IMG/VR virus record: IMGVR_UViG_3300032294_001063
From: an uncultured virus (IMG/VR IMGVR_UViG_3300032294_001063)
Taxonomy: Duplodnaviria; Heunggongvirae; Uroviricota; Caudoviricetes
DNA: 64,000 nt
Strand: one strand, 5' to 3'
The translations under genes and the position numbers were made by a program. This document shows positions 382 through 63,531 of this stretch, piece after piece (position 1 is the stretch's first letter; the number at the start of each line of letters is the position of its first letter). The notes beneath the pieces are model-generated. The model saw only the letters and a program-made list of their open reading frames with translations, did no database searches and had not been told where the DNA came from.

Positions 382-3300
382 ATGGCTGAAGAGACAATAA
401 GTACACGAATAGTCGCTAACGCTGACTTCTCAGCCCTTATCGCCGATGTGCATAGGGTTACTTCTAGTCTATCTAAATTACAAGAGCAATTAGCTAACTC
501 CAACAAGATGTTGGCAAACCAAATTGCCGTAATGAATAGATCGTTTTCTGACACCCTTAGAAGCACTGGACAGTACTCCACACACTTTGTAAGCTTGCAA
601 TCAGATGTTGAAAAATTTGGTAAAAATCTTGATGGCGGAAAACTTAAACTAAATCAATACTTTAACACATTTAGACAACATGCACAGCAATCTGGTGGGC
701 TTATAAGAGATTTAGCAAAACAACAAGTAGCCTTACAGAACTCAGTATTACAACCGCTAGGCAGAAATGCACAAGGACTTATGCAGTTCAATGTGCATGT
801 TCCAAGAGGTCTTGATGAGGTAAAAAATAAAACCGCTATAGCAAGACAAGAGCTTCAGATTATGAATAAGGTAATCCAGGATGGTGCTGGACAACTTATT
901 AACTGGGGTAAAAATACACAGTGGGCTGGTCGTCAGTTAACAGTTGGACTAACAGTTCCTTTGGTAGCTTTTGGAGCACAAGCAGCAAAAGCATTTAGAG
1001 AAGCAGATCAAGAGTTAGTTCGTTTAACTAAGGTGTACGGAGATGTTGCAGGTACCTCAGCAGCAGAGCTTGGTAGAGTTAGAGATGAAGTTGTACAAAC
1101 ATCAAAAGAAATTTCAGCAGCAATGGGTGTTAGCTTTAAAGAAACTATTGGATTAGCAGCAGATATTGCGGCAACTGGAAAAACAGGAGATGAGCTTTTA
1201 GGCTCAATTCAAGAAACAACCAGACTGGCAGTACTTGGTGAAGTAGATAGACAAGAAGCTATGAAAGCAACACTTGCAATTCAATCTGCATTTAAATCTA
1301 ATACAGACGAATTAGCACAATCAATTAACTTTCTTAACGCAGTTGAAAACCAAACATCAACAACTCTTAACGATTTAGTAGAAGCAATTCCTAAAGCTGG
1401 TCCAGTTGTTAAGGGGTTAGGCGGAAGCGTACAAGACTTAGCGCTGTACATGACAGCTATGCGAGAAGGTGGAATTAATGCTTCTGAAGGAGCAAACGCT
1501 CTAAAGTCTGCACTAGCATCTTTAATTAACCCAACAGATGTTGCTGTAGGTAAGTTTAAAACTTTAGGAATTGACTTACTTGGAATTGTAAATGATAATG
1601 CTGGCAATCTAACTGGAACTCTAATGGCGCTACAGGGCGCATTAGACAGACTAAATCCACTACAAAAGCAACAGGCTATTGAGCAGTTGTTTGGTAAGTT
1701 CCAGTTTTCAAGACTAAATGCTTTATTTGAAAACTTAGGTAGAGAAGGAAGTCAGACTCTACAGGTATTAGATTTAATGAAAGCATCAACTGCAGAACTA
1801 GCAGCTGTTGCTGATCGAGAATTAGCTGCTGTAACAGAGTCTGCATCTGGTAAATATCGCAGAGCAATAGAAAGCTTAAGAGCATCTTTAGCAGAAGTTG
1901 GAGAGCAATTTTTAAAGATTAATACAGTTCTTATTCAAGTAATCGATAAGGTTGTTCAATTTGCTAACAATTTGCCAGGTCCAGTAAAACAAGTACTGGC
2001 ATTGGCTGGTGGCTTTACAGCAGTAATTGGTCCAGTAATCATGCTAACTGGTGTACTTGCTAACTTCTTTGGTTATATTCTAAAGGGTATATTCCACATG
2101 AAGGCGTTCTTTAAAGGCGGAGAAGGATGGAAATATTTAACACCAGAAATGCTTGCTGCAGAAAAAGCAGGAAGATTAGTTGAGCAGTCTTTTTATAGTG
2201 ATGCTAAAGCAGCTGCAGTATTAAAACAAGCACTTGGTAATTTAATTGATGAATTTTCAATATTAGAAGCAAAAGCAAAGTCAGGAGCAATGGCTGTAAA
2301 TCCAGCAGTTTCAACAATGGCTGGTAATTTGGTTATGGCTGCAGGCGGACCTAGAGTCGTAAATCCAGATCACCCATTAGCGGGAACACAAGGAACAAGA
2401 GCAAGTTCTCATATGGTTCCAAGATCTGGAATGACAGAGGCGCAAAGACTACAACAGACTATGTTTGGCATGGTTCCAGGATCAATACCAGTAAATCAAA
2501 AAATTGGTCAAAACCCACAAATTTATATGAACGAGCCTCTGCCAAATGTTCCTGGAGTTACAACAGTAAATGGTGTATCTACAGGTATAGTTTCTGGAGA
2601 AGCAGCTAAATGGCATGCAATGATGGCTACTTTAGGAATGCAATCAAAAACAGAAATTGAAAATCTAAAAAGAACAATTGTGGCAACTGGCACCGTAAGC
2701 AAAGAGTTTATGATGCAGTTTGACGACATCCTTCCAGTTGTATCAAAACTTACTGATAACGCTGCTAGAGAATCTGCTTTAATTGTTGCAGAGCTACGTG
2801 CAGGAAAGATGACCGTAGAGACAGCTAAAGCAAAAATTATCGCTCTTAATCTAGAAACAGAAAGAATGATTGCTTCTGCAGTTCAGTCTCAAGCTGCTGC
2901 TATGGGAAGAACAATTAATCCAACAGTAGTTCCTACATTAAATCAGCCAGTTGTAGATGCTACTGGTAAATCTAATATGCGAGAATTATTTAAAAAGGGT
3001 AAAACAAGAGACTTTATTAATAAAATATCAGGGGTACTTGGTGTAAGAACATCTGGTGCTGGATATAATATAGAAACAACAATACCTAAAAAATTTAATC
3101 AAGGTAATATTGTTCCAGGAACTGGAAACACAGATACGGTTCCAGCAATGCTTACGCCAGGAGAATTTGTTGTAAACAAAGAAGCAACTGCAGCAAACTT
3201 GCCATTACTACAAGCAATTAATAATGGTCAACAATCTATGACAAGTGAATATAATGTGGGCGGAATTGTACAAGCATTTTTAAAGATGACTAAATTTGGC

Positions 3301-6300
3301 GGACAAAAGCCAATGGTTTCAAAAAATTTAATAGACAAAATGTTCCCAGGACGTTTAACATCTCGTGCAAATGCTCCATACTATGAGCCAAAGGGTAACG
3401 CTGGCGTTTTCGGTGGTAATGTTTCTGGTAGAAAGTTTTCTGCATCAACAGCAAAAATAAATAAAGATATGGAAACCGAAGGGGTAGACCCAAGAGTCCT
3501 GCTTGCTTCCATAAATGCAAGAGGCGGTGGATCAAGATTATCTACCGATGTATTTTTAGATGGTTTGGCAAACTCAGGTGTAATTTCAAAAGCAGAGAAA
3601 AGAAGACTTTCAAAGTTAATATTTAACTCTTACGCAAAAAGAATTATGTCAATGGATAAAGTTAATGACAGTAATAATCCAGTATATTCAACATCAGAAG
3701 CATTATTGAGAAAAGAGCTTGCTAGCAACCCGATAGGTCTGTCAGCTTGGGACCAGTGGTCACGATCCCCAGGAAGTTTTGCACATCCAACAAGAAGAAG
3801 TTCTACTGGGTTTTTAAATCAAATTCAAGTTGGTGGAAAGTCTATTAAGTTTTCAAACTTAGAGGCTTCAAAATCAAATAAATTTTATCATTCAAAAGAA
3901 GAATCAAATCCGTTTATAAAAATACTATCATCACTATTTTCTACAACAAAATTAAATAGAGGTGGTCCAGTAGGCAATATATTAAAGAGCACCGCATTTA
4001 AAAACCTAGGCGCAAGATTTGGCAAAATGGGAGACAAGTGGGGAGCAACTTCCTTATCTATTGGAATGGGAAGAAAGTTATTTGGAAGTTCTGGACTAAC
4101 TCCTAAAGCTCAAAATTTAATGTATGGAAAGCTAATTGAAAATCTTGAAAAAGAAAGACCATATGGCTATGTCAAAGATGCTCAGGGTAGACTTAAGAAT
4201 GCTCTAGAGCCAGATATTGTAGATACACTTATCAAGTCATCAGCTAGCGATGTACTTAGTTCAGGTGGAAAAAGCTTAAGCAGAATTGATAGAGAAATAT
4301 TAAGATCCAAATATGCAAACTGGGATTCAAAATCATGGACTCCGTCAACTTCTAAAATAAGAAAACAAATGTTTGGAATGAACAGTGGTGGAATGGTTCC
4401 AGGTGTTCAGTATCTAAATAATGGCGGAATGGTAAATGGAGTTCAGTATTTAAGAAGGGGTAGCAAGCGTCCAGTAGAGGCAGCACCATCTATGGGAAGC
4501 GGAATAGCTTCGTCATTTGGCGGTATGGGATTAATGGCCGCAGGATCAATGATTGGTGGCGGTGCTGGACAAGTAATGAGCAGTGCTGGTATGGCAATGA
4601 CATTTATGCCAATGCTATCAATGATACCTAAAGTCAATCTTCAATTAAGTGCAATGCAGAAAAAATTAGTAGAACCAATTGGACCATTAAATAAATTAAA
4701 TGCAGGAATATCTGGTAAGGCAAAGAATTTAACTGGACTTTCAAGAGCGTTTGGTCCAGTTCTTAGAGGACTTTCTTTATTAACTCGTGCATTTAGCCCA
4801 CTTGGAATTGCTCTTACTGCAAGCATATTTGGAGTAAGAAAGTTAATTGAAATTTATAAAGAAAATCAAGAACAACTTCGTATTAATAGGCTAGAATATG
4901 GAATGTCATCTGATGCCATTAAAAAAGCTGGATACTCAATAACAGATTATGGCGCTAATATAAAGAAGGCTATAGAAGATTCTAAGGCATTGCAAGAAAG
5001 AAATAAAATGCTTTATGAAAGCATGTTCCAGGCAAACATTCCAATAAAGATGACAATTGCAGAATATAAAAAGCTTCGTGAAGAAACAAAGAAGAAGATG
5101 CCAGACCTAATTGAATTGTTTAATCAAAAGGGTAATGCTGATGTTGCAACAACTGCGACAAGATTAAAGGCACAGTTCATGTCACTTGGAGACAATATTG
5201 AAACAGCAACAGCTAAAGTTTATGCACTTATGGCTCAATCAAATAAAGCACAAATGGCAGCTGGAGCCATTGGAACAAAGGGATTTGCATCAATAAAAAC
5301 AGCAGTTGATGCAGCAGTATCTTCAGCAGGAAGCTTTGACGATGCAATGACAAGTGGTGACTCTAAGGCCGCTGCAGACTCTCTAATGATTGCCTTTGAA
5401 GGAATTGGAAATGCAATAAAAGATAATGCAAAAACAAACAAATTAGAATTTGGCGATTCAATGGATCAGGTATTAAAGAAGATGGTTGCATCTGGCAAGG
5501 GTCAGGTAACAATTAATCAATCTGTTCTAAATGAATTAAAGAAGCAAAATCCTGAACTCGCTAAGATATTAAATTCTACAGACACTGCTACATCGGCATG
5601 GTCTAAGTACCAGCTTGCCCTACAAGGAGTAAATCTAGACCTACAAACTCTTTCTGGATCTGCTGCTAATGCTGCATTAAAATTACAGTCTCTAGTTGTT
5701 TCTAATACTACAGCTACTCTTAAGAATACTGCTGGTATTAAAGAACAGTATGCAAAATATGAAGGACTTCAAAAGAGAATTAAAGACTTGCAAAAGGCTG
5801 CAATGGGTCAATCTGCTAGACAGCAAATTGATAGCCGAAAAACAATAGAGGGACTTAATGAGCAGATTAAAAAGATTAAGGATGCTGCTGATGCTAAAAT
5901 TAAGGCTCTTCGTGCTCAAAGCCAAGCAGAAAACGATAACTTAGAATTACAAAAATTACAATTAGAATATCAACAAGCTATTGCCCGTGGTGATCAAGAT
6001 GCTGCTGCGAGATCTCAAATTGCTATTCAGCAACTTACAAATCAAGTTCAAACTAAAAAAGCAGAAGAATCAATTATCGCTAAAGCCGAACTTGAAATTA
6101 AACCACTTCAGGCACAAATCGACAAGCTTGGTAAAAAGAATCAAGAGTTGGCAGATAAGGCAGCCCTTGCGGGAGAAAGTTTGTCTAGACTTCAAGCACA
6201 GGCTGATGGGCTTAAAGAAAAGTTATCTGGTTTAGAAAAAGCATTATCTTCAGCAGCCTTTAATAAGCTTATAATGGGTGACGCTTATGAAGGAAGTAGT

Positions 6301-7104
6301 CAACAAAAAACAGATTTAGCTGGAATAGAATCATTTAATACTGCCCTTGGAGCACCAAAGTCTGTTGAAAAGGTAATTCCAAAGGGTGCAAAAGCAAGAC
6401 ACAGAATTCCAGAAACATTCTCTGATACTCCAGGAGGTGCAAAAGATTTACTAGATAAATCTGTAAAACAAATGACTGTGCAGGCTTCAGTTGTAAATCT
6501 TATTGGAGACATTAAAAACGCTGGAACTACAAACACTGGAATGCCTACTAATCTGCAAGGTGATAGAACAAGCAAGTCTAATCCTTTACAAGTTCCTACT
6601 AGCAGCATTTCTGCTAATTTAGTCCGTGAAGATGGAGAGCTTTCTGATAAAGGTGAGGCAAGCATTATATCTAGCCTTAAATTAGAAAAGGGTCAGTTCT
6701 TTAAATTTAATGGAAAGACCTATGAGGTTTTAAGAACTGGATGGGGATTTGGAGACAGAGCAAGGCCAGTTGGCAGATCACTTGGTGGACCAGTAACTCC
6801 TGGTAGAAAGTATTTAGTAAATGATAGAATAAATGCATTAGGTGCTCAGCAAGAAGTCTTTATGCCTACAATGCCAGGAGTAATAAAGCCTAATATTGAT
6901 ACAGCATTTAATATACCATCACAACAAAATGTTAAAATTCCAAACATTTCAAACAGTCCAAATAGCAATAATACATATAATATTGATATTGAGCTAAATG
7001 GAACAACGGTTACAGCAGATGACGTTATGAAGGCCCTTGAGTCTAAGATGAAATTGGTTGGTGCTACACTAGGTAGACCAATAAATGTAGGAGGTAAGTA
7101 CTAA
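382..7104 (+). CDS. Tape measure protein
   Basis: 2240 aa, Ala/Gly-rich helical; TP901-type core (FREADQELVRLTKVYG...ASEGANALKS); hydrophobic segments; GNTDTVPAMLTPGEFVV motif. Confidence 0.95.
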   Translation: MAEETISTRIVANADFSALIADVHRVTSSLSKLQEQLANSNKMLANQIAVMNRSFSDTLRSTGQYSTHFVSLQSDVEKFGKNLDGGKLKLNQYFNTFRQHAQQSGGLIRDLAKQQVALQNSVLQPLGRNAQGLMQFNVHVPRGLDEVKNKTAIARQELQIMNKVIQDGAGQLINWGKNTQWAGRQLTVGLTVPLVAFGAQAAKAFREADQELVRLTKVYGDVAGTSAAELGRVRDEVVQTSKEISAAMGVSFKETIGLAADIAATGKTGDELLGSIQETTRLAVLGEVDRQEAMKATLAIQSAFKSNTDELAQSINFLNAVENQTSTTLNDLVEAIPKAGPVVKGLGGSVQDLALYMTAMREGGINASEGANALKSALASLINPTDVAVGKFKTLGIDLLGIVNDNAGNLTGTLMALQGALDRLNPLQKQQAIEQLFGKFQFSRLNALFENLGREGSQTLQVLDLMKASTAELAAVADRELAAVTESASGKYRRAIESLRASLAEVGEQFLKINTVLIQVIDKVVQFANNLPGPVKQVLALAGGFTAVIGPVIMLTGVLANFFGYILKGIFHMKAFFKGGEGWKYLTPEMLAAEKAGRLVEQSFYSDAKAAAVLKQALGNLIDEFSILEAKAKSGAMAVNPAVSTMAGNLVMAAGGPRVVNPDHPLAGTQGTRASSHMVPRSGMTEAQRLQQTMFGMVPGSIPVNQKIGQNPQIYMNEPLPNVPGVTTVNGVSTGIVSGEAAKWHAMMATLGMQSKTEIENLKRTIVATGTVSKEFMMQFDDILPVVSKLTDNAARESALIVAELRAGKMTVETAKAKIIALNLETERMIASAVQSQAAAMGRTINPTVVPTLNQPVVDATGKSNMRELFKKGKTRDFINKISGVLGVRTSGAGYNIETTIPKKFNQGNIVPGTGNTDTVPAMLTPGEFVVNKEATAANLPLLQAINNGQQSMTSEYNVGGIVQAFLKMTKFGGQKPMVSKNLIDKMFPGRLTSRANAPYYEPKGNAGVFGGNVSGRKFSASTAKINKDMETEGVDPRVLLASINARGGGSRLSTDVFLDGLANSGVISKAEKRRLSKLIFNSYAKRIMSMDKVNDSNNPVYSTSEALLRKELASNPIGLSAWDQWSRSPGSFAHPTRRSSTGFLNQIQVGGKSIKFSNLEASKSNKFYHSKEESNPFIKILSSLFSTTKLNRGGPVGNILKSTAFKNLGARFGKMGDKWGATSLSIGMGRKLFGSSGLTPKAQNLMYGKLIENLEKERPYGYVKDAQGRLKNALEPDIVDTLIKSSASDVLSSGGKSLSRIDREILRSKYANWDSKSWTPSTSKIRKQMFGMNSGGMVPGVQYLNNGGMVNGVQYLRRGSKRPVEAAPSMGSGIASSFGGMGLMAAGSMIGGGAGQVMSSAGMAMTFMPMLSMIPKVNLQLSAMQKKLVEPIGPLNKLNAGISGKAKNLTGLSRAFGPVLRGLSLLTRAFSPLGIALTASIFGVRKLIEIYKENQEQLRINRLEYGMSSDAIKKAGYSITDYGANIKKAIEDSKALQERNKMLYESMFQANIPIKMTIAEYKKLREETKKKMPDLIELFNQKGNADVATTATRLKAQFMSLGDNIETATAKVYALMAQSNKAQMAAGAIGTKGFASIKTAVDAAVSSAGSFDDAMTSGDSKAAADSLMIAFEGIGNAIKDNAKTNKLEFGDSMDQVLKKMVASGKGQVTINQSVLNELKKQNPELAKILNSTDTATSAWSKYQLALQGVNLDLQTLSGSAANAALKLQSLVVSNTTATLKNTAGIKEQYAKYEGLQKRIKDLQKAAMGQSARQQIDSRKTIEGLNEQIKKIKDAADAKIKALRAQSQAENDNLELQKLQLEYQQAIARGDQDAAARSQIAIQQLTNQVQTKKAEESIIAKAELEIKPLQAQIDKLGKKNQELADKAALAGESLSRLQAQADGLKEKLSGLEKALSSAAFNKLIMGDAYEGSSQQKTDLAGIESFNTALGAPKSVEKVIPKGAKARHRIPETFSDTPGGAKDLLDKSVKQMTVQASVVNLIGDIKNAGTTNTGMPTNLQGDRTSKSNPLQVPTSSISANLVREDGELSDKGEASIISSLKLEKGQFFKFNGKTYEVLRTGWGFGDRARPVGRSLGGPVTPGRKYLVNDRINALGAQQEVFMPTMPGVIKPNIDTAFNIPSQQNVKIPNISNSPNSNNTYNIDIELNGTTVTADDVMKALESKMKLVGATLGRPINVGGKY

Positions 7105-7577: not shown

Positions 7578-9706
7578 TGATATCTGCCTCAAATTCTCTT
7601 AAAACATTATTAGAGCAACAGTCTACAATTATAATAAATGCTGGATGCACAGTAGAATATAATATGAATATTCTGGTAGACAACATTGTTGTATCTGGTG
7701 CAGATATCAGCAGAACAGATTCTGCAAATAACGTATACTATCCATTTAAAAAATTATTTCCAGTAGATTCTGTGGTCAAGCAAAACAGGCCAATAAAGGC
7801 TGGAATCAAATATGCTATCGTTGGTGACGTTGGGTTAAATACTTATAGAAATCCAAAAAGTAGTGAGTATGCTTTAAGCTATAGGACATATTATCCTGGA
7901 GCAGAGTCTACTTATAAATATTATGTTTCAGATAAAGGCACTGGTCTTGATGTAACGGCTACATATCCAAAAACAATATTAACAAATAAAATAGTTGTTA
8001 GATTTGAGCTAGGCCACTCTACTCCATCTACATGGACTATATATAGCGGGGCAACACAATTAGCAACAGGCACAAGTGCCGATATAAAATCTTTTGGGAG
8101 CCCAGATGCAGGCACAGTAACAATTTATTATAATGGAACATCCTGGGTAAAAACAGAACCTACTTCTATTTCAACACCTATTAATATGACAAGTCTTAGA
8201 GTAACTACTTCTGGGGTTAGCGGTAAATATATTGGTCTTATTGAAATGTCTCCTAGATGGGTAAAAGACATTACTGATAGGGTTGTAGATTTTGATATTA
8301 CAAAAGAAACTTCTAGCGGATCAGACGATATACTTCCAGTAGGATCTGTAACAGCAAACTCTTTAAGTTTATCGGCAGTATCATATGAGGACCCAAGAGA
8401 TGTCGTATCTTTTGATAAAACTATGTCTTTTAATTCTGCAAAAACTTATATGTATAAGGGAATAGAGATGTCTCCTTATTTTAAAATATACCATACAGAT
8501 GGTGCGTTAACAGATTCTTCTGGAAAATACGATAAGATTAGTCAAGGATTATTTTATGTAGATAGCTGGTCAATATCAGAATTTGGAAACATTTCTGTAA
8601 CGGCCCTTGATGGGGCAAGAATTTTACAGCAGATGATCGCACCTAGCATAGTTTGTAAAGACTATACAACGGTAGCAATTGTAAGAACATTGCTGGATAA
8701 TATTGGATTTACTAATTATAATTTTAATATTACATCTACAGATACATCAATATTTTCACCAAGATACTGGTGGACGGATGATGGTGGAACAGTATGGGAT
8801 TCAATACAAAGACTGTGCAGAGATTCCCAAATGGTTGCTGTGTTTGATGAAAACAACGTATTACAATTTTATACTAGAGAGTATTTGTTTAGTACAGTTG
8901 GAAAAACACCTTTAGAATTTAGATATAGCGCTAGCGGAAGTAATCTGCCAAATATTCTATCTCTAGAAAAACAAGATTTGCCATCAGCCAATCAGGTAAA
9001 GGTTTTATGGAAAAGCGTTACTACAAATAACTATACTGGTAACTCGCAGCCTATATGGGCATCTAATGAGAGAAATCTAGGAGCACTTTCTTTAGAAGGG
9101 GACATGGCCGCAATACCTGGGCAAACCACTGGCCCGTATGACCTATCTGGAACCAACACTTATATTAAATTAAATTTAGTTGTTGCAAACGATGCTCTTA
9201 AAAGTAATATTTTAAATGAATATAGCGGATATCTTATAATTGATTCAGAGATTATAGAGTACGATGCAATACAATATGAATATAAAGATCTATCTGGCGT
9301 AACGCAAACTAAGGATATTACAAGCGGTTCAGAAGCACTAAAGTATCTTGGATTAAGTCAGCCAGGAGCAAGCAATTATCAGCCAAATGGAAAGTATAGA
9401 ATAAAAACAAGAGGCGCATTTGGAACAAAAATAGTTGCACACTATAAACAGGAAAACATATTAAATTCTTGGGCAGGATACGACACAGTATGGAGTGAGG
9501 CTAGTGGATCTACCCCAGTTTTAACAAATGTCGCTAGCGTAACTGCTACAGTTTCTACAACTCAGGTTCCCACAGACTCCCCATTTGATTCTAATGCATA
9601 TATACAAAGCTTAACTTCTCAAGGCTGGTCTCAATCCGATGCTGCTTCTTCTGCCAGATATGCCGCTCAGGCAGAGTACTGGTATCGTACGTTAGGAATA
9701 AGATAA
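7577..9706 (+). CDS. Tail protein (baseplate/hub-like)
   Basis: 709 aa; position in tail module; VWDSIQRLCRDSQMVAVFDENNVLQF resembles a hub domain. Confidence 0.7.
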   Translation: MISASNSLKTLLEQQSTIIINAGCTVEYNMNILVDNIVVSGADISRTDSANNVYYPFKKLFPVDSVVKQNRPIKAGIKYAIVGDVGLNTYRNPKSSEYALSYRTYYPGAESTYKYYVSDKGTGLDVTATYPKTILTNKIVVRFELGHSTPSTWTIYSGATQLATGTSADIKSFGSPDAGTVTIYYNGTSWVKTEPTSISTPINMTSLRVTTSGVSGKYIGLIEMSPRWVKDITDRVVDFDITKETSSGSDDILPVGSVTANSLSLSAVSYEDPRDVVSFDKTMSFNSAKTYMYKGIEMSPYFKIYHTDGALTDSSGKYDKISQGLFYVDSWSISEFGNISVTALDGARILQQMIAPSIVCKDYTTVAIVRTLLDNIGFTNYNFNITSTDTSIFSPRYWWTDDGGTVWDSIQRLCRDSQMVAVFDENNVLQFYTREYLFSTVGKTPLEFRYSASGSNLPNILSLEKQDLPSANQVKVLWKSVTTNNYTGNSQPIWASNERNLGALSLEGDMAAIPGQTTGPYDLSGTNTYIKLNLVVANDALKSNILNEYSGYLIIDSEIIEYDAIQYEYKDLSGVTQTKDITSGSEALKYLGLSQPGASNYQPNGKYRIKTRGAFGTKIVAHYKQENILNSWAGYDTVWSEASGSTPVLTNVASVTATVSTTQVPTDSPFDSNAYIQSLTSQGWSQSDAASSARYAAQAEYWYRTLGIR

Positions 9707-37997: not shown

Positions 37998-38417
37998 ATG
38001 GTAACACATTACGCATGGGATCTTTTTAAGGATCCATTTTTTATTGGCTTCAACGATATGTTTGATCGCCTAAATACAGTACACACAACAGCATCACACC
38101 AATCATACCCACCTTACAATATTGTAAAGTTGGGGGATGACACATTTCGTGTAGACCTAGCTTTGGCTGGGTTTGACAAGAAGGATGTTGATGTAACTAT
38201 TGATAACGGAACCCTTGTAATTAAGGGCGAGGTATCAGCAGAAGACTCTGGTGAAGCAATCCATAAAGGAATTGCTGCCCGTAAATTCACCCGCACATTT
38301 GCGCTTGGGGAATATATGGAAGTCACTGGTGCTGAATTAAAGAATGGCCTATTGTCAGTTACAGTTGAAAAAATTGTGCCTGAAGACAAAAAGCCAAAGA
38401 CCATCAAGATCAAATAA
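37998..38417 (+). CDS. Small heat-shock protein (Hsp20/IbpA)
   Basis: YPPYNI, LALAGF, HKGIAARKFTRTF, LKNGLL, IKI. Confidence 0.95.
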   Translation: MVTHYAWDLFKDPFFIGFNDMFDRLNTVHTTASHQSYPPYNIVKLGDDTFRVDLALAGFDKKDVDVTIDNGTLVIKGEVSAEDSGEAIHKGIAARKFTRTFALGEYMEVTGAELKNGLLSVTVEKIVPEDKKPKTIKIK

Positions 38418-38430
38418 ATAGTATAATAGA

Positions 38431-38549
38431 AATCTGCACCCCGTCACTGGGGAGTCGCAGATTCGGGCATCGCCGCCCAGGATAGTCGGGGGAGACAGCG
38501 ACTATAAATAACTGGTATAGTCCTGAGCATGACTGTAAAAAACTGCTCA
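38431..38549 (+). ncRNA. Candidate structured RNA (hairpins plus H-type pseudoknot)
   Basis: GC-rich intergenic after TATAAT; stems AATCTGC/GCAGATT, GGGC/GCCC, ATAGTCG/CGACTAT; pseudoknot TATAGTC/GACTGTA with TGAGCA/TGCTCA. Confidence 0.6.
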
Positions 38550-38567
38550 TCAAAATTAAGGAGAGAT

Positions 38568-38972
38568 ATGTTTGAATATAGAATTAAGCAAGTAAACAAG
38601 GTAGTTGATGGAGATACTATCGATGTTGATATTGATTTAGGATTCAGCATTTCATACTCTCAAAGACTAAGACTTGCAGGAATAGATACCCCAGAGTCTA
38701 GAACAACAGACAAGTTTGAAAAAACACTTGGAATTGAATCAAAGGATTACTTAAAGAATAAACTTAAAGATGCTAAAAATGTAGTTGTGAAGACAGAAAA
38801 GCCAGATAGTTCAGAAAAGTATGGAAGAGTACTTGGGTGGGTTTATGTTGATGGCAATACAAAATCTCTTAACGAACAAATGATAGAAGATGGATATGCA
38901 TGGTCATATTTAGGAGATACTAAAGTTAAAGATTTTTCAATACTGGCAGAAAAAAGAAAAAAGATTAGGTGA
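38568..38972 (+). CDS. Thermonuclease (SNase family)
   Basis: VVDGDTI, RLAGIDTPE, KYGRVLG; RBS AAGGAG. Confidence 0.9.
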   Translation: MFEYRIKQVNKVVDGDTIDVDIDLGFSISYSQRLRLAGIDTPESRTTDKFEKTLGIESKDYLKNKLKDAKNVVVKTEKPDSSEKYGRVLGWVYVDGNTKSLNEQMIEDGYAWSYLGDTKVKDFSILAEKRKKIR

Positions 38973-40072
38973 TCAGTATGCAAAAAAATCAATTGATGCC
39001 AAAGGTAATTGTATATAGCGGAGTCTTAGACAATACAGAGTTTATTACTTCAACAATTAAGCAATCCGAAGCCGAAGAAAATCAAGGCAGATACTATATA
39101 AATAAGTGGGGTAAATGGGGTCGTATAGGGACAAGCACACAATTAAAAAACTGGTTATTTAGTTTAAGCAATGGATCACTACTAAATGTTGGAGATGAAT
39201 CTGACTGGTGTATTAATAAAAGAACATGGTTTCTTTTAAATAAAGATGATAAAAGCAGCCATAAATGCGATAATACAAATGATGAAGTTTATGTTCCAGA
39301 AGACTATGCCCCTATAGAAAAGGAAGACCTTGACTGGTTCAAAAATAATTATTTTAATTTAATATCTGATGAAAACTCAATAGATCAAAGAAAAATGCTT
39401 ACTAGCATTAGGTCAGCATATAAGAAAGTTTTACTAGACTATATAAAAGATTGGGGAGCAGACGAGTCTTTTGATAGAGTAAATAATTTTAATCTTAAAG
39501 ATGGCTCATGGCAGATACCTAACTTTGGCATACTGCATCATTCTAAAACCCCAGACGACTATTCAATGTCTATGACTTACCATACAGATACTCATCAATA
39601 TGATACAGAGCGTGGCGGAAATCATTTTATATTAACTATTACAATGTATTTAAACGATGATTACGAAGGTGGAGAGCTTACATTTTTAAACGAAGATGAT
39701 GGAGATGTAATTCACTATCGACCAAAGGCGGGAGACATAACAGTTTTCCCATCTGCAGTACCATATTGGCATGGTGTAGAGAGAGTTGAGTCTGGAGACA
39801 GATACCTGGTAAGAACTTTCTTGGCCAAAGAGTTTGAGCCGTCTGATTCATGGAAAAAAAATGCAGAGCATTATGGATTAGAAGAGTATAAAAAGATGGA
39901 GCACGAAAGAATATCTAAAGAGTATAACGATCCTAAATATTTTAGATTAGCAGTTTATGAAGACGATGTTGTTACTAAAAATAGTAATGGCTCTATTCAT
40001 ATAGGTGACTATACTGGTATGGTTGGTTTCCCTTTTAATGTAAATAAAAAAAGAGGATATTATAAAAACTAA
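38969..40072 (+). CDS. 2OG-Fe(II) oxygenase (prolyl-4-hydroxylase-like)
   Basis: HTD, YLNDDYEGGEL, WHGV, GDRY. Confidence 0.85.
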   Translation: MISMQKNQLMPKVIVYSGVLDNTEFITSTIKQSEAEENQGRYYINKWGKWGRIGTSTQLKNWLFSLSNGSLLNVGDESDWCINKRTWFLLNKDDKSSHKCDNTNDEVYVPEDYAPIEKEDLDWFKNNYFNLISDENSIDQRKMLTSIRSAYKKVLLDYIKDWGADESFDRVNNFNLKDGSWQIPNFGILHHSKTPDDYSMSMTYHTDTHQYDTERGGNHFILTITMYLNDDYEGGELTFLNEDDGDVIHYRPKAGDITVFPSAVPYWHGVERVESGDRYLVRTFLAKEFEPSDSWKKNAEHYGLEEYKKMEHERISKEYNDPKYFRLAVYEDDVVTKNSNGSIHIGDYTGMVGFPFNVNKKRGYYKN

Positions 40073-40082
40073 AATTCATTGG

Positions 40083-40847
40083 ATGCAAAGACACGGAAAC
40101 GACTCTCTGCCCGAACTAAAATCTTTATCTAACAAGCTTGAGTCTTGCGGGTACGAGTCTGTTCTTTTGGTGTATCATTCATTGTTGCCAGACTATATGA
40201 TAAGGGTTGCAAATATTATTAATCCTGATCATAATTTAAAGTATATGTTTGCAATTAGGACATATGCCATAAGCCCAGAATATTGTGCAATGATGTGCGA
40301 AGCCTTTCATTTAATTGATCCCAACAGAATTATTTTGAATATTGCAGCTGGGGATTTAAAGCCAGAAGAAACTAGCGTTGAGGATGTTGTTAAAATAGGT
40401 GGTTTTTTAAAAGACTATTCGGATAGGGTAGAGTATACTTCAGAGTGGCTAGAAAAGTTTTTAAATTTAAAGTATTTTAAAAATAAACCAGAGTTAGTTG
40501 TAAGTGGTACTTCTTCAAAAACAATTGATAACTCAGAAAGATATGGGGATATACACTTAGCCATGCTATCAAGCTACAGAGATGGTCTTGAGGTTGGCAC
40601 AAAAAGAAAAATGGCGTCCTGCCCAGTTATCATAAGAGATACTCACGAAGAAGCTAAAGCTGTATTTGATTCCCAAGAAAATAGAATGACTAAAATTTCT
40701 ATGATTTATGGAACAGAAGATGAAGTAATTGAAAAAATTAAAAGGCTTGGAGATATAGGTATTACAGACTGCCTACTTAATTCAGATAGAGCAGGAGAAG
40801 ACGATAGGATACATAAGATGGTAAAGAAAATGTTGAAGGGTGAATGA
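40083..40847 (+). CDS. Luciferase-like (LLM-class) flavin-dependent oxidoreductase; start possibly 40059/40062
   Basis: LESCGYESVLL, LKYMFAIR..AISPEY, RIILNIAAG, VVSGTS, GTEDEV..KI..L..GI. Confidence 0.75.
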   Translation: MQRHGNDSLPELKSLSNKLESCGYESVLLVYHSLLPDYMIRVANIINPDHNLKYMFAIRTYAISPEYCAMMCEAFHLIDPNRIILNIAAGDLKPEETSVEDVVKIGGFLKDYSDRVEYTSEWLEKFLNLKYFKNKPELVVSGTSSKTIDNSERYGDIHLAMLSSYRDGLEVGTKRKMASCPVIIRDTHEEAKAVFDSQENRMTKISMIYGTEDEVIEKIKRLGDIGITDCLLNSDRAGEDDRIHKMVKKMLKGE

Positions 40848-40850
40848 GGT

Positions 40851-41036
40851 ATGCCCATATACGAATATAAGTGCGAATGTTCTCCAGAAGACATTGTTTC
40901 AAAAGAGCGATCTATAACCTCTGTTGAACCAAACTATCTGTGTAATTCATGCGGGAAAAGATTGCAAAGGCACTACGGTTCTTTTGGCATACAGTTTAAA
41001 GGCAATGGCTTTTATAAGACTGATAATCCTAAATAG
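40851..41036 (+). CDS. FmdB-family zinc-ribbon protein
   Basis: MPIYEYKC...C..CG...FKGNGFYKTD. Confidence 0.85.
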   Translation: MPIYEYKCECSPEDIVSKERSITSVEPNYLCNSCGKRLQRHYGSFGIQFKGNGFYKTDNPK

Positions 41037-58566: not shown

Positions 58567-58767
58567 TTATATATTAAGTTGTAAATCCATTGATGTATCT
58601 TCATTTAGATATACATCTGTAGCTTCAATTACATCATTCGTTGCAATTGGATCCCATTCAGTTTCAGGTAATGAGTTTGCAATCTCCGCTGCCTCATATG
58701 GATCGGCAGCTTCAAGGATAGTATAATAGTTCTGATATTTATTTCCAAATACTCTATAAGCTGGCAA
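58567..58767 (-). CDS. Small acidic protein
   Basis: LEAADPYEAAEIA. Confidence 0.55.
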   Translation of the reverse strand: MPAYRVFGNKYQNYYTILEAADPYEAAEIANSLPETEWDPIATNDVIEATDVYLNEDTSMDLQLNI

Positions 58768-63360: not shown

Positions 63361-63457
63361 TATACAAGCTTTTCAGGGTGTTTTTTATGTGATCCGTAAC
63401 ACAGAAATTTCGCCTTCAAGGTTGCGGGCATCTCACATATTGATATTAAATTCTTAG

Positions 63458-63531
63458 CGATCCATAACGGACTTGAACCGTCGACCTCTACCGTGACAGG
63501 GTAGCGCTCTAACCAACTGAGCTAATGGACC
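63458..63531 (-). tRNA. tRNA-Asp (GTC)
   Basis: GGTCCAT/ATGGATC acceptor; TAGCTCAGTTGGTTAGAGC D-arm; CT-GTC-AC loop; GGTTCAAGTCC T-arm; no encoded CCA. Confidence 0.93.

Follow-up and report, generated by a model that had tools for sequence, protein, structure and literature searches.

A small H-type pseudoknot of phage gene boundaries, set in a modular leader cassette: a candidate roadblock to RNA decay and ribosome traffic

The preQ1-I and SAM-II aptamers are pseudoknots similar in size and topology to the RNA described here, and pseudoknots of the BWYV type place an A-rich third loop (L3) in the minor groove of stem 1. In phages, the gene 32 leader carries an H-type pseudoknot that has a single-nucleotide first loop (L1) and lies ahead of A/U-rich letters and the ribosome binding site (RBS); this knot serves as the autogenous operator for one protein, SSB. 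STAXI is a tandem pseudoknot found near antirestriction genes, and intercistronic stabiliser hairpins occur in bacterial operons.

Coremin (xrRNA-C) is hosted by beny-, cucumo- and other eukaryotic RNA viruses, where it acts against Xrn1. The activities given for RNAs of this type in passages of three papers are mechanical, namely the stalling of 5'-3' exonucleases, a block to scanning ribosomes and the stimulation of frameshifting (PMC6546385; PMC10321173; PMC10520033). Read from the names of its mutants in part of PMC6546385, the coremin spacer is composed of G12, U13U14, A15A16A17 and C18U19, and one natural Watson-Crick variant, xrRNA-WCC, is placed 8 nt past the last ORF in a passage of PMC10321173. 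The pseudoknot of the T2/T4 gene 32 mRNA leader is mentioned in part of PMC10690425. Passages of Perreault et al. 2011 (PMC3088659) locate hammerheads between phage or prophage genes, including those of the ardA type, where they are thought to split long transcripts into gene-length mRNAs of differing stability. In addition, a rule of thumb from a passage of PMC5737381 holds that invariant letters combined with a wide spread over phyla mark “sophisticated” RNAs (ribozymes, riboswitches).

The locus considered here lies in the window, the whole stretch of 64,000 nt analysed from an uncultured virus of the Caudoviricetes, between an hsp20 gene and a gene for a staphylococcal-nuclease-like (SNase) protein (Table 1). 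The original prediction had described a GC-rich island after a TATAAT hexamer, with three hairpins and a 34-nt pseudoknot ending shortly before the RBS, and all of these coordinates were borne out in the sequence; the GC content is 57.5% at 38440-38519, compared with about 25–45% on either side. The SD sequence AAGGAG begins 8 nt past the end of the second helix (P2). SNase was the sole Pfam match of the downstream protein, which has 591 relatives among the IMG/VR candidate stretches, the N-terminus MFEYR/MYEYR being kept in relatives. No close DNA relatives of the window were found among GenBank phages.

Table 1. Features from the hsp20 gene to the SNase gene, in positions of the window.
Feature	Position	Strand	Details
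hsp20 (small heat-shock protein, upstream gene)	37998..38417	+	Pfam HSP20, E 1.9e-18; stop TAA 38415-17
ATAGTATAATA box, putative promoter	38418..38428	+	contains -10-like hexamer TATAAT 38422-27
HP1, 5' hairpin	38431..38463	+	AATCTGC 38431-37 / GCAGATT 38457-63; inner CCCC/GGGG; asymmetric internal loop; inverted repeat I1
HP2, short GC hairpin	38465..38478	+	GGGC 38465-68 / GCCC 38475-78; seen in fold
HP3 unit, optional module	38482..38514	+	ATAGTCG 38482-88 / CGACTAT 38499-505; loop GGGGGAGACAG; conserved tail AAATAACTG; inverted repeat I2
H-type pseudoknot, 34 nt	38516..38549	+	covariation; covariance model (CM) score
Pseudoknot P1, 7 bp	TATAGTC 38516-22 / GACTGTA 38531-37	+	
Pseudoknot P2	TGAGCA 38524-29 / TGCTCA 38544-49	+	
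Pseudoknot loops	L1 C38523; L2 U38530; L3 AAAAAC 38538-43	+	
A/U-rich spacer, SD and SNase start	38550..38570	+	spacer 38550-57; SD AAGGAG 38558-63; ATG 38568-70
Staphylococcal-nuclease-like protein, 134 aa (downstream gene)	38568..38972	+	Pfam SNase, E 2.6e-17

Folding of the single sequence is of little help here (z-score -1.66 for the + strand, -1.82 for the - strand). The case for the pseudoknot is made by A3, an alignment of 77 relatives gathered through their neighbouring proteins; sets gathered by pattern fix P2 and two of the P1 pairs by construction, and therefore only this protein-anchored set counts for covariation. In A3, 89.8% of cells are paired, against 24–51% when the partners are slid, both sides change in 9 of the 12 pairs, and the covariation score was reached by none of 500 shuffles. 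Since kinship alone may let related sequences outscore shuffles without any structure, it is the slid-partner control and the pairs free of unpaired cells that carry the argument. Such pairs comprise three of P1 and four of P2, with compensatory changes in two of the three in P1 (the third is invariant) and in all four in P2. Within the P1 core, columns 7-20 hold GC in 54 sequences and CG in 23, columns 8-19 AU in 64, UA in 12 and GC in 1, and columns 9-18 CG in all 77. For P2 the counts are GC 75, AU 1 and GU 1 (columns 12-36), AU 67 and GC 10 (13-35), GC 72 and AU 5 (14-34), and CG 63, UG 13 and UA 1 (15-33). The G.U pairs, with the 13 UG at 15-33, are compatible with the + strand only. Furthermore, P2 variants such as TGGACA/TGTCCA, GGGTA/TACCC and TAAGCA/TGCTT were found by covariance-model search and not by regular expression.

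Outside the helices or at their edges, C10, U11, A16 and AAA are invariant in 77 of 77 A3 sequences, the unpaired letters among them being the C of L1 and the AAA of L3. The window copy has the same build: its P1 closes with C38522-G38531, C38523 occupies column 10, and the loop strand fits UGRRYA, pairing past an L3 that ends in AAAC. A covariance model made from the relatives scores this copy at 46 bits (E 3e-13), with the runner-up in the 64 kb at 11 bits. On these comparisons the 34-nt H-type pseudoknot at 38516-38549 is strongly supported as a real structure, and the clear covariation among homologues decides in favour of the original prediction a test on which it could have failed.

The knot recurs well beyond this locus. 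Among 80 loci anchored on Hsp20 it follows hsp20 on the same strand in 63, and all 64 covariance-model matches within these 63 lie on the gene (+) strand. Genes after the knot are Zn-ribbon-like (28), SNase-like (23) or other (16), with 20 places that hold no SD or start, and the upstream genes are diverse, ArdA-like genes among them. The knot is not specific to the nuclease; it is tied to its intergenic position. Its core pattern occurs in at least 125 stretches of bacterial and archaeal genome contigs, where simple arithmetic gives about 9 matches by chance, and in at least 121 stretches of IMG/VR viral contigs; the knot-bearing contigs among the matches listed are assigned to many phyla and to archaea. 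Two false positives of the regular expression (position 9117 of the window and relative L037) were set aside, while L161, L246 and L284, which represent one conserved ORF without P1, are still inside the 133- and 239-copy counts given below. In one type III-A CRISPR array the knot is carried by 5 of 140 spacers, all five in the orientation that would give a crRNA able to pair with the sense RNA.

As to catalogues, Rfam 15 has no family for the knot, which answers a check proposed with the original prediction. The window has no match at the gathering score, a scan of 38300-38700 at E ≤ 10 returned only noise, and the knot stayed unmatched in a gathering-score scan of 12 genome loci; E-value scans of six multi-copy genome loci and six relatives' loci gave only tRNAs, weak hammerhead matches and noise. 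STAXI was rejected as the identity of the knot, there being no Rfam match. Searches by topic and sequence words found no paper on the knot, although the supplements of PMC10690425 and PMC5737381 may list it under another name. The knot is a very widespread, uncatalogued family at gene boundaries in phages and mobile DNA.

The family is anchored on the stop codon of the gene upstream. Among the matches listed, 159 of 239 unique copies have a sense-strand ORF stop at most 45 nt upstream, and the gap from stop to CCTGAG peaks at 8, 9 and 10 nt (33, 19 and 13 copies), whereas the antisense control, with 88 copies having a stop, is flat (2, 4 and 5 copies at these gaps). As the family is defined here, its knot starts about 5–7 nt past the upstream stop codon. 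With 8, 9 and 10 nt all frequent as gaps, none of the three frames is favoured, and recoding at the stop codon was rejected. The window copy departs from this rule, its P1 starting 98 nt past the hsp20 stop (38417 to 38516) with the promoter box and three hairpins in between; relatives L054 and L056 have the direct, stop-proximal form.

The downstream side bears on a role in translation, by which the knot, 8–13 nt before the SD, would be an insulator or standby platform holding the RBS single-stranded, or an ON/OFF device. We regard this as rather unlikely. The start of an ORF of at least 50 aa does lie 10–50 nt downstream in 71 of 82 distinct protein-anchored copies, and the SD spacing of the window agrees with it, but shared ancestry confounds this tight spacing within the phage set. 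Among the genome matches listed, the distance from knot to next start is broad (14–66 nt) while that to the upstream stop is sharp, and an SD with a start within 70 nt is present in only 33 of 133 copies; the 20 phage-set places mentioned above have neither SD nor start after the knot. The ON/OFF form draws on the 3' strand of P2, which together with the next letters can pair with AAGGAG in some relatives (CTCCTT, complementary to it, follows P2 in L001, L007, L054 and L062), and the MFE fold of the window pairs CUC.AU with the SD region. As a general rule, however, an anti-SD switch was rejected: in 50 of 77 sequences CTGCTC is followed by an A, which pairs with U11 instead of the SD G.

What follows the knot is more varied. 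Among the matches listed, a U-tract begins 0–3 nt past P2 in 44 of the 133 copies from genomes and in 35 of the 117 from IMG/VR. Of these 133 genome copies, 5 precede a type III hammerhead and 2 a tRNA, while 61 are without any scored neighbour feature; hammerheads follow none of the 117 listed IMG/VR copies. Stem III of the hammerheads starts 0–2 nt past P2, so that on cleavage the upstream fragment retains the knot. A pseudoknot-dependent terminator or attenuator, in which closure of P2 beside a U-tract releases RNA polymerase, would make sense of these U-tracts and of L102-L105, where new TATAAT boxes come after the knot and its U-tract. It is nevertheless very unlikely, as two thirds of the copies among the matches listed are without a U-tract, and in the window AUCAAAAUUAAGGAG stands directly 3' of P2, with no U-tract, hammerhead or tRNA after the knot. 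The terminator scan found no terminator-like site at 38418-38567, from the end of hsp20 to the start of the SNase gene, where no GC-rich hairpin is joined to an immediate U-tract.

Upstream of the knot, the leaders are assembled from modules. A TA[TG]AAT box at most 130 nt upstream precedes the leaders of most distinct relatives, and the full ATAGTATAATA box recurs behind upstream genes other than hsp20 (L022, L059, L072). In the window the TATAAT box is a putative promoter, the activity of which we infer; the sigma-70 scan of the window leaves it unlisted because it has no -35 hexamer. It lies 3 nt before HP1. Allowing up to 2 mismatches, the ATAGTATAATA box shows no enrichment over the window, with 51 matches against 54 expected, and a second exact copy at 58718 falls within a minus-strand ORF region with no structure after it, and was therefore dismissed as a chance match. 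HP1 is nearly invariant in sequence over 39 distinct copies, with little covariation (foot pairs TA 28, TG 5, CG 3, unpaired 3), and its variation in these copies is too low for the covariation test to judge. In other relatives a different hairpin module, TGTCC..GGACA, replaces HP1. The place of HP2 holds hairpins of other sequence, for example TTCGGGTCGCTACCCGAA and GCGGGCCGCTACCCGC, and on such examples, with no formal count behind them, shows what appears to be module swapping. HP3 is present in 11 distinct leaders only and absent from most; in both stem and tail it is similar to the pseudoknot unit, as seen in direct repeats D1 and D3. The leader cassette as a whole moves as a block behind varied upstream genes (L021, L022, L042, L059, L060, L072).

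A block that travels in this way, with a promoter-like box of its own, a hairpin at its 5' end and structure at its 3' end, could be a separate trans-acting small RNA, decoy or antitoxin running from the TATAAT box to the knot, with SNase or the host as target. This is highly improbable, considering that no terminator or processing site lies past the knot in the window, that tandem repeats are missing and that SNase is not a constant neighbour. The more specific proposal of an RNA antitoxin or decoy of SNase is not supported, the knot being single-copy and tied to intergenic position: no tandem repeats occur in 38200-38800 and there is one model match in the whole 64 kb. A ToxI-like type III antitoxin, in contrast, consists of repeats of about 36 nt arrayed in tandem immediately before its toxin gene, and its partner is a ToxN/AbiQ-type endoribonuclease to which the RNA is bound, whereas the protein downstream in the window is an SNase and an inconstant neighbour.

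The main idea of the original prediction was a ligand riboswitch or thermosensor that controls SNase through competition between HP3, P1 and P2, and to this we give very little credence. Its three-way competition stands in part. The pairing of GACTATA 38500-06 with TATAGTC 38516-22 is present, and the MFE fold computed without pseudoknot terms uses it, but it is not conserved among relatives: the competitor between the 3' arm of HP3 and the 5' arm of P1 has at least 6 bp in 3 of 11 distinct HP3-bearing leaders (the window, L001 and L128), falls to 2–5 bp in the others and is absent where HP3 is absent, as it is in most relatives. A fold forced to HP3 plus P1 is isoenergetic with the MFE, P2 not yet counted. 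These two results also withdraw the description “switch-like”. Size and topology do resemble the preQ1-I and SAM-II aptamers; against a riboswitch leader, no Rfam match appears at E ≤ 10, the downstream genes are unrelated in function and belong to no single pathway, a conserved expression platform is lacking (there is no terminator), and the single-nucleotide L1 and L2 would leave scant room for a pocket. Among the three functions originally put forward, an exonuclease-resistant RNA comes closest to what the family context suggests.

To our knowledge, no self-cleaving class is as small as 25 nt. This weighs against a further reading, distinctly unlikely overall, in which the knot is a very small self-cleaving or catalytic RNA, or a recognition or processing site read by an RNA-binding protein or RNase of phage or host. 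The invariance of C10, U11, A16 and AAA across 77 sequences and the near-invariance of HP1 over its 39 distinct copies are in its favour, but an invariant L1 and an A-rich L3 are equally needed by a purely structural triplex pseudoknot. The presence of the knot in many phyla and archaea among the matches listed argues for a universal partner or for none. The flanking genes are diverse, and a conserved protein partner is missing from them. The knot also adjoins hammerheads, a type of neighbourhood that has yielded other ribozyme classes according to a passage of PMC5737381. In a bolder variant of the wider proposal given below, the invariant loop letters may mark a catalytic or factor-binding RNA; together with the many phyla they fit the rule of thumb from the same passage, and by that analogy the knot may have a more specific biochemical job.

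The reading we prefer, with a probability of roughly 0.5, is a roadblock cassette in which promoter, 5' hairpins and knot hinder RNA decay and ribosome traffic between cistrons. The knot belongs to a widespread gene-boundary family, and so an RNA-protecting roadblock is more likely than a switch for the nuclease. The region 38418-38567 is a non-coding, modular cassette composed of a -10-type box, interchangeable hairpins and the 34-nt H-type pseudoknot at its end; HP1, HP2 and the optional HP3 unit would form the extreme 5' end of the transcript, and the knot would act as a compact, ligand-free mechanical obstacle. Across the family as a whole, a ribosome that finishes translating the gene before the knot would just abut it, and the knot would become the 3'-terminal structure of the upstream message through termination (U-tract) or processing (hammerhead, tRNA) and would shield that message from 3'-to-5' exonucleases.

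In the window, since there is no terminator in between, the hsp20 message would extend into the knot, and the promoter-proximal transcript would carry the knot just before the SNase SD; the knot would therefore cap both RNAs during distal decay. The knot and the 5' hairpins together would further hinder 5'-end-dependent decay and keep structure upstream away from the RBS. The window copy breaks the positional rule of the family and has no end-forming neighbour, and thus the 3'-cap reading is indirect here; a role in the 5'-UTR fits at least as well.

A wider proposal, which we put forward only tentatively, is that the knot (25–34 nt) might be the prokaryotic counterpart of xrRNAs: a self-sufficient, host-independent cap, coremin-like as far as the GUUAAAC linker, that ends or fences messages. 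Such a cap would be used across many bacterial phyla and archaea, alone, with a U-tract, or with hammerheads and tRNAs, would be conserved enough for repeated targeting by type III CRISPR, and would here have been placed in a shuffled promoter-leader cassette. If the knot blocks nucleases or ribosomes, it would rank among the smallest and most widespread RNA stability devices of prokaryotic viruses and be a natural counterpart to the xrRNAs of eukaryotic RNA viruses. It would also explain how phages give adjacent cistrons of long transcripts different lifetimes, while providing annotators of uncultured phage genomes with a marker of gene ends and of the RNA strand, and synthetic biology with a 25-nt insulator or cap. 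For RNA catalogues, a pseudoknot with several invariant nucleotides, present on hundreds of contigs, is missing from Rfam 15; for the window itself, a tempting riboswitch or antitoxin story for the nuclease is removed as unsupported.

Among known systems, luteoviral frameshifters of the BWYV type share with the knot a compact H-type fold, a very short L1 and an A-rich L3, and their spacing of about 6 nt from the A-site codon equals that from stop codon to P1 in the phage family (the likeness being drawn in part from a passage of PMC10321173). The phage knot differs in having no slippery site and no preferred frame, and two of the three frames usually hold stops in the consensus, so a reading as a recoding signal is not adopted. 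The T2/T4 gene 32 leader resembles the leader in the window in its H-type knot, in the single nucleotide of L1 and in the A/U-rich letters that separate knot and RBS; that operator serves SSB, whereas the downstream genes of the window family vary and none is an SSB. As with hammerhead punctuation, the knot follows ArdA-like genes, and it directly precedes hammerheads in 5 copies among the matches listed; it has no hammerhead core itself, and the relevant passages of PMC3088659 give no description of it.

The likeness to coremin and xrRNA-WCC is one of sequence and fold. Each is a tiny hairpin-plus-spacer pseudoknot (passages of PMC6546385, PMC10321173 and PMC10520033). In these passages hp1 of coremin is 3 bp long, the same as the GAC/GUC helix of the minimal phage form, against 7 bp for P1 of the window, and the pyrimidine bridging to stem 2, which is C in the phage knot, may only be C or U in coremin (PMC10321173). 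The coremin spacer letters equal the commonest phage L3 plus the first letter of P2, GUUAAAC-U, and the three A's that are essential in coremin are invariant in the phage family (PMC6546385). According to the same passages, stem 2 of coremin is non-canonical or of 3 bp and its loop is YGAD (or YGNNAD) with a 10-nt spacer, whereas the phage knot forms 5–6 Watson-Crick pairs and has a longer loop, CUGAGCAW, the spacers agreeing as far as AAACU. Coremin also requires a hairpin, hp2, directly after the spacer for Xrn1 resistance, and in the window AUCAAAAUUAAGGAG takes that place. Finally, coremin blocks a 5'-3' enzyme in the passages cited, while the context of the phage knot, with a hammerhead, tRNA or U-tract after it, points to protection of the 3' end.

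The pseudoknot lies between an hsp20 gene and an SNase-like nuclease gene of an uncultured phage that also encodes a PolIII-alpha-type polymerase, a DnaB-like helicase and RecA, with genes for a 2OG-Fe(II) oxygenase and a luciferase-like protein in the same neighbourhood. No match to the window was obtained among the DNA of GenBank phages. Checked in the window sequence, the coordinates of the original prediction are all correct, and its GC-rich island is confirmed at 57.5%, against roughly 25–45% in the surroundings. One ORF call, from 38529, begins at an ATG within the knot; relatives conserve the start of the nuclease gene at 38568 instead. Folding of the window sequence alone is unremarkable (z-score -1.66, with 16 of 200 shuffles equally stable; -1.82 on the minus strand), and the case for structure therefore rests on relatives.

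Features of the window, with the leader and its pseudoknot
Feature	Position	Strand	Detail
Very long ORF	382-7104	+	2240 aa, at window start
hsp20	37998-38417
TATAAT	38422-27	+	within ATAGTATAATA
HP1	38431-63	+
HP2	38465-78	+
HP3	38482-505	+
HP3 unit	38482-38514
Promoter-like site	38492-38521		GAGACA, 18-nt spacer, TATAGT with TG before
Competitor pairing	38500-06 / 38516-22	+	GACTATA / TATAGTC
P1	38516-22 / 38531-37	+	TATAGTC / GACTGTA
L1	38523	+	C
P2	38524-29 / 38544-49	+	TGAGCA / TGCTCA
L2	38530	+	U
L3	38538-43	+	AAAAAC
SD	38558-63	+	AAGGAG, 8 nt past P2
SNase-like nuclease gene	38568-38972
Zn-ribbon gene	40851-41036		2.3 kb beyond; Zn_ribbon_8 match E 5e-5, under Pfam cut-off
tRNA-Asp (GTC)	63457-63531	-	sole Rfam or ARAGORN hit in window

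Relatives were gathered independently of the RNA, as 80 IMG/VR loci retrieved via the SNase protein and 80 via Hsp20, and the same leader is present in about half of the former and most of the latter. A first alignment, A1, holds 70 distinct copies of the knot; a second, A3, holds 77 sequences, namely A1 without one copy bearing an insertion (L101) and with eight variants detected by the covariance model only.

Base pairs of the knot in alignment A3 (77 sequences)
Helix	Pair	Counts
P1	9-18	CG 77
P1	8-19	AU 64, UA 12, GC 1
P1	7-20	GC 54, CG 23
P1	6-21	AU 35, GC 16, CG 5, UA 5, GU 4, other 12
P2	11-37	UA 50, other 27
P2	12-36	GC 75, AU 1, GU 1
P2	13-35	AU 67, GC 10
P2	14-34	GC 72, AU 5
P2	15-33	CG 63, UG 13, UA 1
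P2	16-32	AU 70, other 7

Compensatory changes occur at four P2 pairs, contributed by the model-found variants; neither the outer P1 pairs nor pair 11-37 hold generally. Overall, 89.8% of cells are paired in A3 as compared with 24–51% when partners are slid, and its covariation score was reached by none of 500 shuffles, such that the knot now has the covariation support called for when it was proposed. The RNA is assigned to the plus strand because 13 U.G cells would read A.C on the opposite one. Invariant throughout A3 are C10 (L1), U11, A16, G18 and the AAA of L3, a loop held at about 6–7 nt, with three added A's in copies whose P1 has 3 extra bp, that of the window among them. The 64 kb contain a single copy according to the covariance model (46 bits, E 3e-13; runner-up 11 bits).

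The original prediction tied this RNA to the nuclease, a link which the relatives do not bear out. The covariance model matches 64 times, in 63 of the 80 loci retrieved via Hsp20, every time on the gene strand and 30–140 nt past hsp20, and the genes that follow vary: Zn-ribbon-like proteins account for 28 distinct N-termini, SNase-like ones for 23 (and 2 more that have an additional M) and others, including luciferase-like and kinase-like proteins, for 16, while at 20 places neither an SD nor a start follows. The knot is not tied to the nuclease. Since the gene directly after it differs between relatives, the leader looks like a junction for swapping gene cassettes. In the window the order past the knot is SNase, 2OG-oxygenase, luciferase-like and then the Zn-ribbon gene (38568-41036); many relatives carry a small Zn-ribbon gene (MPxYxYxC...) directly after the knot, others an SNase, 2OG-oxygenase or luciferase-like gene.

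Compared across relatives, the leader is a mosaic of modules. TATAAT is followed after 3–8 nt by a hairpin, either of the HP1 type (CTGCACCCC..GGGGAGTCGCAG) or of an alternative type (TGTCC..GGACA, then CGGGCTAATAGTTACGCC). Hairpins differing in sequence occupy the HP2 position, after which come an optional HP3 unit, GGAU and the knot. The 39 distinct copies of HP1 are almost invariant and so permit no test of its pairing by covariation. Reduced arrangements include the knot alone, directly past the hsp20 stop (L054, L056), HP2 with the knot (L034), and the knot with a U-tract and further, new TATAAT boxes after it (L102-L105). In L012 (1448-1484) a deletion runs from the hsp20 stop region to L3, leaving only the 3' half, AAACTGCTCC, before the SNase RBS. 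Across these arrangements the constant part of the leader is the knot, with the hairpins as accessories. The window leader also contains a second promoter-like site, the -10 of which is the P1 5' arm; relatives do not conserve this site (AATAGT, ATTGAC). Just upstream of hsp20, some relatives have tRNA genes (L083, 726-800 and 1326-1399; L088, 1096-1168; L136, 1206-1426 and 1446-1506), and L136 has a weak ROSE_3 thermometer-like match directly before the hsp20 start (23.7 bits, E 0.43, under gathering score).

A switch based on three-way competition between HP3 and P1 had also been proposed. The competing pairing is present in the window but is not general: among 11 distinct HP3-bearing leaders, the HP3 3' arm and P1 5' arm can form 6–7 bp in only three (the window, L001 and L128), 4–5 bp in six and 2–3 bp in two. 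It occurs where HP3 and P1 have a common AGTC/GACT core (direct repeat D3) and is gone where P1 (L022) or HP3 (L006, L129) differs. The minimum free energy fold of the leader (-40.5 kcal/mol) includes the competitor, and the fold constrained to HP3 and P1 has equal energy before any contribution from P2 is counted. There is no sign that the competition has been selected. The HP3 unit resembles the knot unit in its stem core, ATAGTC, and in an A-rich tail with CTG at its end (tail AAAUAACUG; direct repeats D1, D3). Its letters are invariant in relatives. It may be a diverged duplicate of the knot unit, possibly a second knot that has diverged and whose stem 2 would have 3 bp (CAG/CUG).

Beyond these loci, the pattern ACCTGAGCANGT-N(2-9)-AAACTGCTC is found in at least 125 stretches of genome_contigs, with an estimated 9 or so expected by chance, and in at least 121 stretches of IMG/VR. 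Taxa named among the listed genome matches are Patescibacteria, Lactobacillaceae, Bacteroidota, cyanobacteria, Actinomycetota, Pseudomonadota, Methanobrevibacter and DPANN archaea. Many of the records are MAGs, and phage contigs may have been mis-binned in them. The usual form is minimal, with a P1 of 3–4 bp (GAC/GUC) and an L3 of NNUAAAC. Upstream genes are diverse (ArdA-like, Hsp20 in L233, coat-like, Mu-F-like). In some contigs, successive small genes, some of them ArdA-like, are each followed by a knot, giving two or three per contig (L162 at 863, 1502 and 2092; L199 at 1502, 1928 and 2039; L181 at 906, 1502 and 2650), and L217/L235 carry tandem knots 48 nt apart (1502, 1550). Rfam 15, scanned with the window and with the relatives' and genome loci, gave no match for the motif. 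Nor was the motif found in the parts of the published literature covered by the search, passages of PMC10690425 and PMC5737381 included.

Of 239 unique pattern copies, 159 have a sense-strand ORF (40 aa or longer) whose stop is no more than 45 nt upstream. Across the 239 copies listed, the gap from stop to CCTGAG has its peak at 8–10 nt (33, 19 and 13 copies at 8, 9 and 10 nt), against a flat distribution in the antisense control (88 copies; 2, 4 and 5 at these gaps). Given a P1 of 3–4 bp, the first paired base falls about 5–6 nt past the stop; with the stop codon in the ribosomal A site, it would be just outside the mRNA channel. No reading frame is favoured, as all three gap classes are common, and the next start lies at widely varying distances (14–66 nt).

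What follows the knot is often end-forming. In the genome set (n=133), 44 copies are followed by a U-tract, 33 by an SD with an ORF, 5 by a hammerhead and 2 by a tRNA, and 61 have no such neighbour. Of the 117 copies in the IMG/VR pattern set, 35 precede a U-tract, 67 an SD-like start and none a hammerhead. The five hammerheads (L165, L203, L214, L224, L234) are of type III, rated weakly by Rfam (HH9, under gathering score), with the 5' strand of stem III opening 0–2 nt past P2. Their cleavage site lies 6–8 nt beyond the knot, which thus remains the 3' structure of the upstream fragment. This arrangement agrees with the idea, as set out in part of PMC3088659, that hammerhead cleavage divides the polycistronic RNAs of phages into pieces of gene length.

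In one genome (G001) all five pattern matches fall in a single CRISPR array of 140 spacers (C1:1029054-1038717, L286-L291). The knot-bearing spacers have differing flanks and one orientation. The sample of five is small, and five of five has a roughly 1-in-16 chance for either orientation. Adjoining cas genes (L292, minus strand) are of type III-A, comprising Cas6, Cas10/Csm1, Csm2, RAMPs, Csm4, two Card1-like CARF nucleases and Cas1. Read as its reverse complement, the repeat ends with ATTGAGAC, which resembles the 8-nt crRNA tag of Cas6-processed repeats; crRNAs would thus be complementary to sense-strand knot RNA, an orientation that would match the requirement of an RNA-sensing system.

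Taken together, the fold, its strand, its anchoring to stops, the end-forming neighbours and the independence from the following gene fit a ligand-free roadblock at gene boundaries. Set against five rival explanations, this reading as a whole has, in our estimate, about an even chance of being correct. The best-supported role for the family would be to cap the upstream message at its 3' end. For the window copy such a role is indirect, because the knot is atypically placed inside a promoter-leader cassette, 98 nt past the hsp20 stop and behind a promoter box and hairpins, and no end-forming signal was found after it in the window leader. On read-through hsp20 transcripts it would act as a distal cap; on promoter-proximal transcripts, the knot and the 5'-terminal hairpins might obstruct 5'-end-dependent decay or, alternatively, insulate the RBS. 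The window copy may serve both kinds of transcript.

The closest published system, as far as the portions of PMC6546385 and PMC10321173 consulted describe it, is coremin, an xrRNA found in RNA viruses of eukaryotes. Coremin and the phage family in its minimal form have a 3-bp hairpin and a single pyrimidine bridge (PMC6546385, PMC10321173), and the coremin spacer, its letters being read from mutant names, equals the commonest L3 of the phage family, with A's essential in the former as AAA is invariant in the latter (PMC6546385). A Watson-Crick variant of coremin has a short stem 2 and is located 8 nt past an ORF (PMC10321173). The two differ in host, in the length of stem 2, in the second hairpin that coremin requires and in the direction from which the enzyme that coremin is known to stop approaches. 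The resemblance would be a likeness of mechanism rather than membership.
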